Source: Plasmodiophora brassicae
Taxonomy: Eukaryota
Length of the DNA: 64,000 nt
Direction: 5' to 3'
NCBI GenBank assembly: GCA_036867785.1
Contig: CP145412.1
Span: 558,001-622,000 of the forward strand
Shown: positions 58,970-61,376 of the stretch, in pieces
Numbering within the stretch: the first letter of the stretch is position 1
How the letters are laid out: the number at the start of each line of letters is the position of its first letter
The notes under the pieces: model-generated
Databases searched by the model: none
Seen by the model: only the letters and a program-made list of their open reading frames with translations
What the model was told of the DNA's origin: nothing
Translations under genes and position numbers: made by a program

Positions 58970-61376
58970 TTACGTCTGCTCTCGTTTATTCGGCCACACG
59001 AGGACCTGGAATTTGTATAACGGGCGAAGCTGTCCGAGCTCGGGGAAGATCAAGAACCACTCGAGCCCGTCCTTGCTTGTGTGGCTGTCCACTCCATCGA
59101 CCGGCTGCGCGATCTGCCAGTAATCCACAAATCTGTGCGTTCGGCCTGCGATCACCTTAGCGAACAGACCTATGCACGTTCGTTCGTTGCCGTGCGGGGG
59201 CGAAACGGACCCGGATAGCACTCGACCATGACGACCTCCAGGATTCGAAGCGTCCGACGGTCCTCCTGAACGACGACCGGGGGTAGCCCGTCCTCATCGT
59301 CGACGTGTGCGACCGGCAACGGTTTCGATTGGACCTCCTCGAGCGCATCCGATGAGAAATCGGGATGCACGTGCAGAATGGCTTGCGTGCAGAGCCTCGA
59401 CACGTACACACTGTCGCGAACAGGGTCGTCAGCACCGGTTCCGGCACGGTCCGCCACCCGTTCCGACCCCTTCTTCGGATCCCCAAACCACCGGTCCTTC
59501 TCGTAGGTCGACGGGTTCTTCTCGTGCAGGAGCGGGTAGATACCCTCCAGGCAGGCGTGGTCGAGGTGCTCCGGCGTCGTCGTGTAGAACCCGATGCGGG
59601 CCTGCCTCTCGATCGGGCCGCGATCTGGGCTGGCGGCCAGGCGCTCCCCGTACGCCTCAAACGCGGTATCCAGGTGCTTGGCGAACACCTATCGGCACTG
59701 ACGTTGTAGCGCCCATCATGCACGTGCTGATGATTCGTGGCACTCACTTTGAACACCTTCAGGACCTCGACCTTGTCGATCTGTCTGGCGATGCCCATGT
59801 GCTGCAACAGGAGCGATTTCGCATCGGCGAACTCCTTATCGTCGGGCGACATCTCGCCGATCAGGCGGATCGCCGCGTTCTTGTACGTCTCGTTGTCGTC
59901 CTCCATGGCAAGCTGGTTCAGGTCCGCCAGGATTCGTCGCCGTGTGTCTCGACAGCGAACGTTGAGCAGGTCGCGAAGCTCGACGGCGGTCAGCTGCAGC
60001 AGGCGTTCGCCGTTGATGGCGTGCTCGTGAACGCCTTTGGCGTACACCTCCCCGTTCCACGCGAACGACTTGATGTACTGTGCCACGCTGGCTATGCTCC
60101 AGCGGTGGGCCCGCCCCCGGCAACGATCCGGGATCAGCAATCGTCGGCGCCCGCCGTACTCGGCTCTGTACTTGACGTGTCGCGCCACACAATTCGTTTT
60201 CCAGACGGCGTCGTAGATGCGCCCGTCGCTGTGGTAGTACGTCCCGGGGCCACAACGCTGCCCTGCCCGGTACTCGCCAACATGACGGTCGCCTTTGTTG
60301 AACCTGAACTTCTTCCCGTTCTCGATCAGGACCGTCTGGTCGGCGAAGATGAAGGTCCCTTGGCCATCCTGGGCAGCACGTCAACGTCGTGGTTTGCAAC
60401 ACGCGTTGGGACGCGTCTACCTGCTTGCCATGGGCCCACGATCCCTCGTACCGGTTGCCGGTCTTCATTCTATAGGTCCCCTGGCCGTGCCGCCTCCCGT
60501 TCCTCCATTCGCCATCGTATTCCGCTCCCGACTTCGCGTACGTCATCCGACCTTTGCCGTCGCGTTTACCGCCCTTCCACTGGCCGACGTATTCGCTGCC
60601 GTCCGCGTAGAAGAAGGTGCCCGTTCCGCCACCTGGGACGTCGTTCCGCCATTCGCCTTCGTACGACGATTGGTCGTCGAAGACCTGCACGCCGAACCCA
60701 TGGCGTTCGCCCATCTTCCATTCCCCAATGTACGATTTCGTCTTCTGGAGGAGGCGACCCTTCCCATGGCGGAGGCCTTCCTTGAACCCGCCCTTGTATT
60801 CGTCGCCCGACACCCAGACGAATCGCCCCTGGCCGTCAAACAGGCCGTCCTTCCAGTACCCTGTCGCCAGGTTAGTCGGCGCTGCCCGTATCGACGAGGG
60901 AGGATGCTGTGGATGACACCTTCATAGGATTCGCCTGCCTCGGTGCTGAGTGTGCCTTTGCCATCGCGTTCGCCCAGACGCCACCACCCGCTGTAGTAGT
61001 CGCCATCGAGCCAGACGTGGACGCCGTTGACGGGTTCGGCGCTGTCGGCCGGCGTCGGCAACCGGTTGGCGACGTCAAACTCGCGGAGGCGGATGAGGGA
61101 CCCCCTCGCCTTCAGCTGCGTTCTGGTGACGAAGGGCCTCGGCGGCAGCGCCCTCTTGTTGATCAGCGCCGCCGTGATGTCGTCGTCCATGCATTTGACG
61201 CAGTTGAAGTAGGAGAACGGGCGCGGCTTGATCGTCATGCAGTGCTCGGCGAGAGCGCCCGCCTCATCCTTCGCGCGTTTCGTCATGTCGGCACCGACGT
61301 CGTCGGGGACGTCCCCGTTTGGCCGCCATGCGTTCGCTCGCACAGGTCGGCGTTCGCCGTTGACCACATCGCTCAT
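58970..61376 (-). CDS. MORN repeat - SAM - PARP-like (TASOR/DUF3715-like) protein (multi-exon)
   Basis: About 8-10 Y.G.W..G.RHG.G repeats; SAM WSIASVAQYI...HAINGERLLQLT..EL..RRRIL; PARP-like GFYTT, WFGDPKKG|VYVSR, EVIAGR, DSH, EWFLIF..QLRPLY. Confidence 0.75.

Follow-up and report, generated by a model that had tools for sequence, protein, structure and literature searches.

A MORN-SAM protein of the clubroot pathogen Plasmodiophora brassicae with a PARP-like C-terminal domain and an altered NAD+ pocket

Introduction

Is the C-terminal domain of a MORN- and SAM-containing protein of the clubroot pathogen Plasmodiophora brassicae (Rhizaria, Phytomyxea) a working ADP-ribosyltransferase (ART), or a relative of these enzymes that no longer catalyzes the reaction? 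The question is raised by a gene on the minus strand of contig CP145412.1 (GenBank assembly GCA_036867785.1), at positions 58970–61376 of the 64,000-nucleotide stretch analyzed here (contig positions 558,001–622,000; hereafter, the window). An original prediction, made from the letters of the window, had proposed a tankyrase-style MORN-SAM-PARP protein with a TASOR-like, non-canonical catalytic domain, acting either as an ART or as a pseudo-PARP scaffold. We describe the transcript and its domains, the relatives and predicted fold of the C-terminal domain, and the residues that line its nicotinamide adenine dinucleotide (NAD+) pocket. The protein is best read as a MORN-SAM scaffold of the cytosol whose PARP domain is either a pseudo-PARP or altered in specificity, and, judging from its sequence, this domain is probably a non-enzymatic relative of the ARTs.

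One transcript joins the MORN, SAM and C-terminal exons

Splicing was followed in contigs from four public runs, each of a different study (X1, X2, X7 and X13), mapped on window positions 58800–61600. The runs are labelled ‘RNA?’ by guess, none being recorded as RNA, and the evidence used is their intron-free contigs. The locus is a single gene of six exons, with the ATG at 61376 and the stop codon at 58970–58972, which is exactly the extent first proposed. The joined exons form a coding sequence of 2115 nucleotides (nt) for 704 amino acids plus stop, and the spliced protein is identical to P0057 (NCBI XXQ32376.1, recorded as ‘SAM domain-containing protein [Plasmodiophora brassicae]’). The protein of another isolate, P0001 (PBRA_003224, CEP03464.1, UniRef A0A0G4J7U9), differs from it at six residues. 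In three runs, the MORN exons are joined to the SAM and C-terminal exons on single contigs (X2 record 7, X1 record 1 and X7 record 10), so that, as proposed, one transcript carries both the MORN and the SAM-PARP parts. The 57-nt intron foreseen by the original prediction was also recovered (intron 4 in Table 1); at this place, X13 has an equivalent skip of 59 nt, with 2 extra letters between.

The last intron determines how the protein ends. Intron 5 is spliced in X2 and X13 and retained in the X1 contig, and the X7 contig starts at 59210. With intron 5 removed, the protein has the sequence VVMVECYPGRTHRF, the counterpart in the alignment of the motif VMFKxLPGRSxH of the protist family described below. 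A motif EVIAGR, listed by the original prediction among the hallmarks of the ART fold, would need a different acceptor; splicing to 59145, as in the contigs and the database model, leaves the letters LFAKVIAG in the intron, and the motif is withdrawn. Two alternative acceptors, 59170, or 59156 with a donor at 59226, were considered and ruled out, as the X2 and X13 contigs and the database models all use 59146–59210. Retention of intron 5, also present in the Logan-derived open reading frames (ORFs) P0002 and P0003, adds a stop (...PFRPRTATNERA) and would yield a protein ending ...NERA, in which the last strands and the catalytic-position Glu are lost; this represents either incomplete or alternative splicing.

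MORN and SAM domains precede the C-terminal domain

The protein begins with a segment of about 115 residues that has no Pfam match even at E ≤ 10, followed by about nine MORN repeats, a SAM domain, a helical linker of ~40 residues and a C-terminal PARP-fold domain. Both domain types named in the original prediction, MORN and SAM, are recognized by Pfam, which finds nothing else in the full-length protein; the PARP-like domain ends the chain, with no SPOC-DomI after it. Tandem MORN repeats (PF02493) score far above the cut-off (E = 1.5e-39, 131.9 bits versus 22.5, nine stretches) and are similar to the solved structures of MORN1, FAP207, MORN3 and RSPH1. This similarity is all that bears on the flagellar or membrane-associated position suggested in the original prediction. 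These repeats stand where tankyrases have ankyrins, for which the full-length protein has no Pfam match.

The SAM assignment, based on profile scores, is borderline but consistent across three sequences. On window exon 3, SAM (PF00536) scores 25.9 bits against a cut-off of 23 (E = 1.3e-5) and SAM_2 scores 22.3 against 20.5; on full-length P0001, in which residue 447 differs inside the matched stretch, SAM reaches 22.7 against the cut-off of 23; in the ortholog from Spongospora subterranea, the score is 25.6. Compared with the PDB, the SAM part has weak matches to ETV6 (0.009) and SARM1 (0.014). A two-copy complex prediction for residues 378–462 returned ‘no answer’ with a score of 0.00, which is evidence neither way on the polymerization suggested in the original prediction. 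Only two of the 45 aligned proteins of the family defined below carry MORN and SAM, both from plasmodiophorids.

This domain composition bears on where the protein acts. As P. brassicae lives as a parasite inside plant cells, and effectors of other pathogens commonly carry ART domains, the protein might be pictured as a secreted or host-targeted ART-type effector. We consider this very improbable. The N-terminus, MSDVVNGERRPVRANAWRPNGD..., is without a hydrophobic signal-like stretch (read by eye from the sequence, no predictor), MORN and SAM domains are typically intracellular, the Spongospora ortholog is colinear, and the pocket is degenerate.

The C-terminal domain belongs to the PARP/DUF3715 superfamily

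A phmmer search with the C-terminus against 1.84 billion representatives retrieved 49 proteins at E ≤ 1e-3 (E = 5.9e-11 to 7.7e-4), the protist relatives being 22–31% identical to the query. A family alignment (A1) was assembled from P0001 and 44 of these 49 matches, giving 45 proteins; P0002, P0003, P0005, P0006 and P0027 were left out, being either short fragments or parts of the query gene itself. Seven representatives belong to Mastigamoeba balamuthi, the remaining named members to Thecamoeba, Phalansterium, Petalomonas, Polykrikos, Gefionella and Namystynia, and the others are metagenome or Logan proteins. Most of the aligned proteins match Pfam PARP (37 of 45), and 22 match DUF3715 (E ≤ 1e-3 for both). 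When nine non-plasmodiophorid members were checked singly, four exceeded the PARP cut-off of 26.7 bits and three the DUF3715 cut-off of 28.5 bits, which places the family between these two Pfam models. The query C-terminus itself is matched by neither model, PF00644 (PARP) or PF12509 (DUF3715), at E ≤ 10. The motifs that had led the original prediction to an ART fold, namely GFYTT, WFGDPKKGVYVSR, DSH and EWFLIF..QLRPLY, are all present and lie in conserved columns of the 45-sequence alignment; given the phmmer E-values above, their agreement is far beyond chance.

The family profile searched against the PDB gave 45 distinct sequences at E ≤ 0.01, all PARP-type, with TASOR (6TL1) at the top (1.3e-11), PARP14 further down (3.9e-7), and then PARP10, PARP12, PARP15, ZAP (2e-4) and the tankyrases (~1e-3). 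The query C-terminus alone has four phmmer matches in the PDB, all PARP catalytic domains (PARP10 three times and ZAP once), which, at E ~0.3, are suggestive and non-significant. By transitive homology and fold, the domain is a member of the wider PARP/DUF3715 superfamily. In a midpoint-rooted FastTree phylogeny confined to members of the family (43 sequences, without fragments P0034 and P0049; 168 columns), the longest internal branch is the one that bears the two plasmodiophorid proteins, and the midpoint root also falls on it. The plasmodiophorid domain has diverged strongly from the protist family between PF00644 and PF12509, of which it is an offshoot.

Structure prediction points the same way. 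AlphaFold2 (AF2), run on the C-terminal domain with the family alignment, gave a model with pLDDT 84.5 and pTM 0.81; from the single sequence, the result was uninformative (pLDDT 37.2). Foldseek placed the TASOR pseudo-PARP 6TL1 first for the former model (E = 3.8e-12, TMt 0.73), followed by tankyrase 1/2 (E ~1e-10, TMt ~0.69) and PARP10 (TMt 0.74). There were 374 PDB matches at E ≤ 0.001, and, among the matches listed, all were TASOR, tankyrase or PARP10. A structure search with the ESM Atlas’ own model returned 10 rows with TM 0.60–0.64, nine of them PARP-family by Pfam and one PARP by automatic name only; by language-model features, the best named neighbor is again a PARP. In the AF2 model, Tyr541 ends the strand RIGFY, Tyr582 lies in GVYVS, His593 is on the next helix, and Glu675 starts EWFLI. 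The last two strands (model positions 210–214 and 221–233) are connected by a PELGQ-like loop of ~5–6 residues, and model confidence is low for an acidic insert of 38 residues (596–633), which contains 10 Asp/Glu and 3 Lys/Arg. These models support an ART/PARP fold for the C-terminus, in line with the original prediction, whose label of a TASOR-like domain is also borne out by 6TL1 being the nearest solved structure by both profile and fold.

It is scarcely credible that all this is an artefact, either a wrongly fused gene model or chance motifs on some other fold. Such a view could draw on the lack of a Pfam match for the domain alone, the poor single-sequence model and the contigs that keep intron 5, cutting off the last strands. 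Against it stand the junctions seen in spliced contigs of four runs from four studies, three of which link MORN to PARP-like exons, phmmer E-values down to 5.9e-11 to members that match PARP or DUF3715, and the agreement of profile, fold and language-model searches, all of which point to PARP.

Residues of the NAD+ pocket are replaced together in plasmodiophorids

The pocket residues of P. brassicae and Spongospora were compared with those of the 43 non-plasmodiophorid members of the family, in the numbering of P0001. The His of the His-Tyr-Glu (H-Y-E) triad, found in 42/42 others at position 541, is Tyr in both plasmodiophorids, and the following residue, Gly542 in 40/42 others, is Thr in both. 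An invariant Tyr at position 589 (43/43) is Gln in P. brassicae and Arg in Spongospora. The Tyr at position 593 (41 of 42 others) is His in both species; by its spacing from the triad Tyr, this position maps onto the nicotinamide-stacking Tyr of PARP1 (Tyr907). The triad Tyr at 582 (41/43) is preserved in both. Glu675 (42/42) is preserved in P. brassicae, and the Spongospora model ends earlier. The reading of the triad as Y-Y-E, made in the original prediction, agrees with both the alignment and the secondary-structure positions in the model. A HMMER pairwise alignment to ZAP had set DRWFG on GIYFA, making Trp573 the triad residue; it was overruled, since the family alignment and the model strand favor GVYVS and Tyr582.

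Other positions follow the same pattern. Both plasmodiophorid proteins have Ala509, Lys570 and Arg572, where the family has Asn, Asp and Gly, respectively, and P. brassicae retains Gly575, Gly580, the DSH.S motif and Pro688. In all, there are departures in seven near-invariant columns, and in six of these Plasmodiophora and Spongospora have the same residue. The Spongospora protein, P0004, has 658 residues and is colinear with that of P. brassicae, to which it is 51% identical over 657 aligned positions. The end of its model coincides exactly with the exon 5/6 junction of P. brassicae, so that the last exon, which bears the DSH and Glu motifs, is probably missing from it. Two short fragments of environmental origin may be from the plasmodiophorid clade: P0006/P0059 has Tyr at the triad His position, and P0027 has Gln at 589 and retains Tyr at 593.

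The His-to-Tyr change, together with three changes at family-invariant pocket positions (G542T, Y589Q and Y593H), makes a pseudo-enzyme likelier than an ADP-ribosyltransferase. The either/or of the original prediction is thereby narrowed, its pseudo-PARP arm being the likelier and its transferase arm the less likely, given the four pocket changes.

The triad position appears not to be uniform within the species. In a contig of run X7, G replaces A at window position 59586 (depth 97.6/97.6, one contig), turning codon 541 from TAC (Tyr) to CAC (His); Tyr541 is found in the window, P0001, P0057, X1, X2 and X13. There appears to be a natural Tyr/His polymorphism at this position. Elsewhere in the gene, X13 differs from the window coding sequence by 8 synonymous and 6 non-synonymous changes, the latter all shared with P0001, a pattern that fits a maintained gene.

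Comparison with known systems

The DUF3715 domain of TASOR/TEX15 (PF12509; 6TL1) is the closest structural parallel, ranking first among solved structures for both the family profile and the query model. TASOR and the query share the motif G-x-P-x-x-G-V-Y-(V/L)-S-R-Y, and both are without some NAD+-pocket residues, although the query retains the catalytic-position Glu, whereas the triad of TASOR is given as L-Y-Q in a table of PMC7955679. In Douse et al. (10.1101/2020.03.09.974832), TASOR is described as a pseudo-PARP with a 14-residue loop between its last two strands (an extended β8-β9 loop unique to TASOR) that is required for function; the corresponding loop of the query is short in the model, at ~5–6 residues. 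The order of domains also differs: TASOR-like proteins are outlined in PMC10578480 as having an N-terminal DUF3715 followed by SPOC-DomI, whereas the PARP-like domain of the query is C-terminal, after MORN and SAM. The original prediction had seen the gene as relevant to the origin of the TASOR domain of the HUSH complex. This applies to the H-Y-E protist relatives and does not extend to the query protein, which is on a long derived branch and without the extended β8-β9 loop. We know of no link between the query and HUSH or piRNA silencing.

The protist H-Y-E family itself shares with the query the motifs NPS..D.GWFGDP..GVYVSR (D-loop), DSHSS and LEWxLF. It keeps His-Gly, both invariant Tyr residues and the Glu, whereas the plasmodiophorids have changed, and the plasmodiophorid pair has, relative to this family, an extra acidic loop of ~38 residues. 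The domains that accompany the protist H-Y-E domain differ from those of the query and include FG-GAP, cadherin-like, SH3, SPRY, RCC1, SAP, FHA, WWE and ankyrin.

Tankyrase 1/2 (ANK-SAM-PARP) resembles the query in having a SAM domain directly N-terminal of the PARP fold (in the query, SAM at residues 388–452 and the PARP-like domain from residue ~496). The likeness called tankyrase-style in the original prediction holds for this order, and nothing beyond order and general fold was found to sustain it: tankyrases have ankyrin clusters in place of MORN repeats, the profile match is weak (E ~1e-3), and the query is without an H-Y-E site. Nothing in the SAM-PARP pairing common to both speaks for inheritance over convergence.

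ZAP/PARP13 (4X52, 2X5Y) has a Tyr in the column of the triad His, in LFYATS as compared with GFYTTT in the query. The similarity is weak (E = 0.3 for the query alone and 2e-4 with the profile), and the ZAP architecture consists of zinc fingers and WWE. Its triad is Y-Y-V, the Glu also being absent. ZAP/PARP13 is described in Douse et al. (10.1101/2020.03.09.974832) as lacking two or more NAD+-binding residues and as inactive.

A comparable order is seen in Plasmodium TKL3, with MORN, SAM and then a C-terminal catalytic-type domain; the MORN motifs are few and weak, and the output is a kinase, not a PARP fold. According to PMC2933843, PfTKL3 activity requires the SAM domain, whose self-interaction is also treated there. 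TKL3 illustrates that MORN-SAM-output arrangements occur in other protists; by analogy, what it shares with the query would be a likeness in order.

A binding module or an enzyme?

We favor, with moderate confidence and by analogy with ZAP/PARP13 and TASOR, a domain that would no longer be a canonical NAD+-dependent PARP and would serve as a binding module on a MORN/SAM scaffold. With its H-Y-E triad, the parent protist family has the look of a catalytic one. The NAD+ pocket would have been rebuilt in the plasmodiophorid lineage, with Tyr-Thr in place of His-Gly, His in place of the presumed nicotinamide-stacking Tyr, Gln or Arg at another Tyr that is otherwise invariant, and Lys and Arg at two D-loop positions. 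What would have been kept are the triad Tyr and, as seen in P. brassicae only, the catalytic-position Glu, the DSH motif and the fold. The resulting PARP-like domain may then act as a binding module whose placement is set by the MORN repeats, with clustering through the SAM domain as a further possibility. The gene model, the joint transcript, the domains, their homology and fold, and the replaced residues are observed; the loss of catalysis, the binding role, the cytosolic location and the function as a scaffold are inferred.

Several points weigh against this reading. The catalytic-position Glu675 and the triad Tyr582 are retained and the changed residues are conserved between genera, which a re-specified working site would fit equally well; some natural alleles, as in run X7, have a formal H-Y-E triad. 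The AF2 model was built on an alignment of PARP-like relatives and hence depends on sequence homology, and no Pfam family matches the C-terminal 239 residues at E ≤ 10, nor did scans of the separate exons give one for this part. As to a cytosolic location, the absence of a signal peptide was judged from sequence alone.

The main rival is an active ART whose site is non-canonical, being Y-Y-E or, in the His allele, H-Y-E; we rate it as rather unlikely. Tyr541 and His593 would handle ribose contact and nicotinamide stacking, and Glu675 would catalyze, while SAM would cluster the protein and MORN place it at a membrane or the cytoskeleton, in a loosely tankyrase-like manner. Glu675, Tyr582, the DSH motif and Gly580 are retained, the replaced pocket residues are conserved from Plasmodiophora to Spongospora, a natural His541 allele occurs in X7, the parent family keeps H-Y-E almost without exception, and the fold search ranks tankyrase catalytic domains near the top. 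However, four invariant or near-invariant NAD+-pocket positions have changed together (H541Y, G542T, Y589Q/R and Y593H), the stem branch is very long, and the domain has no Pfam PARP match even at E ≤ 10; moreover, ZAP, with Tyr at the same aligned position, is described by Douse et al. as inactive.

Alternatively, the pocket may be re-specified and not merely broken. Plasmodiophora and Spongospora, only 51% identical overall, share Tyr541, Thr542, Lys570, Arg572 and His593, and Glu675 is retained; the site could bind or act on a ligand other than NAD+ in its canonical pose, such as ADP-ribose, a nucleotide or RNA. The protein would then be a MORN/SAM-anchored reader or an unusual transferase, with a Tyr/His switch segregating in the field, and the TASOR/TEX15 pseudo-PARP would descend from a catalytically competent sister group, the H-Y-E protist relatives. 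We regard this combination as improbable, and retain the binding module on a cytosolic scaffold as the best account of the protein.

Gene features and genomic surroundings

The features of the gene are collected in Table 1. The gene region has a G+C content of 59–67%. One NCBI name of P0001, ‘unnamed protein product (mitochondrion)’, is at odds with a nuclear-type, intron-bearing gene whose longest recorded cluster contig measures 1.68 Mb, and seems to be a labelling error of the source.

Table 1. Coordinates, in the window, of the MORN-SAM-PARP-like gene and its parts
Feature	Position	Strand	Support
Whole coding sequence, 6 exons, 704 residues plus stop, MORN-SAM-PARP-like gene	58970–61376	-	Identical to XXQ32376.1 (P0057)
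Exon 1: N-terminal 115 residues without family match, first MORN repeats	60920–61376	-	
Intron 1, 59 nt, GT..AG	60861–60919	-	Contig joint in 4/4 runs
Exon 2: MORN repeats	60421–60860	-	Pfam MORN E = 3.8e-33, 6 stretches
Intron 2, 52 nt, GT-AG	60369–60420	-	Contig joint in 4/4 runs
Exon 3: last MORN repeats, SAM domain, linker, start of PARP-like domain	59748–60368	-	MORN 8.7e-6; SAM_1 1.3e-5
Intron 3, 59 nt, GT-AG	59689–59747	-	Contig joint in 4/4 runs
Exon 4: PARP-like strand with GFYTT (Tyr541 codon TAC, 59584–59586), D-loop WFGDPKK	59468–59688	-	
Intron 4, 57 nt, GT-AG, in frame, stop-free	59411–59467	-	Joint in 3/4 runs, equivalent skip in the fourth
Exon 5: GVYVSR strand (Tyr582), helix with Q589/H593, acidic low-confidence insert (residues 596–633), strand VVMVECYP	59211–59410	-	
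Intron 5, 65 nt, GT-AG; contains LFAKVIAG letters	59146–59210	-	Joint in 2/4 runs
Exon 6: GVDSHTS, LEWFLIF (Glu675), LRPLYKFQV, stop codon	58970–59145	-	
MORN repeat region, residues ~120–360, split by introns 1 and 2	60186–61019	-	9 Pfam stretches
SAM domain, residues 388–452	59910–60104	-	Pfam
PARP/DUF3715-like domain, residues ~496–700, split by introns 3–5	58985–59780	-	

Downstream, a convergent plus-strand ORF of 598 residues (57105–58898), uninterrupted and without a Pfam family, has its stop codon 69 nt from that of the studied gene, a spacing such that contigs bridge both. Upstream, ~310 nt separate the ATG from a divergent plus-strand ORF. A further plus-strand ORF (62378–63448) matches the triose-phosphate transporter family (PF03151, E = 3.2e-17), and its product is, from this match, probably a sugar-phosphate or nucleotide-sugar transporter.

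Among the protist relatives, Mastigamoeba balamuthi has many paralogs of the H-Y-E PARP/DUF3715-like domain (P0008/P0051, P0012, P0015, P0017, P0018, P0033 and P0041). FG-GAP repeats occur in 6/45 family proteins and cadherin-like repeats in 4/45. Both are found in P0012 of Mastigamoeba, where repeats of extracellular type unusually accompany a PARP-type domain. One member, of 2756 residues, is named a putative Ser/Thr kinase.

Significance

Public records name the protein only as ‘SAM domain-containing’, ‘hypothetical’ or ‘unnamed’, and its precomputed Pfam annotation lists MORN only; with no PARP-type label in these records, the PARP-fold domain is unannotated. A literature search that did not extend to supplementary tables returned no paper with the identifiers of the gene (PBRA003224, A0A0G4J7U9, CEP03464) and nothing on a MORN-SAM-PARP architecture. 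Papers on Plasmodiophora and PARP, judged by their titles and the beginnings of their abstracts, include none on a PARP-like protein of the parasite. That DUF3715 ‘arose in early eukaryotes’ has already been published, in an analysis centered on metazoa (PMC10578480).

For clubroot biology, the gene opens no long-standing question by itself; it is lineage-restricted, expressed and conserved. For the PARP superfamily, it adds a new architecture, MORN-SAM-PARP-like, found among the 45 aligned proteins only in two phytomyxid plant parasites, and a clear case of pocket remodelling, comparable with ZAP and TASOR. The little-described protist family between PARP and DUF3715, which keeps H-Y-E, is the better material for the origin of the TASOR/TEX15 pseudo-PARP.

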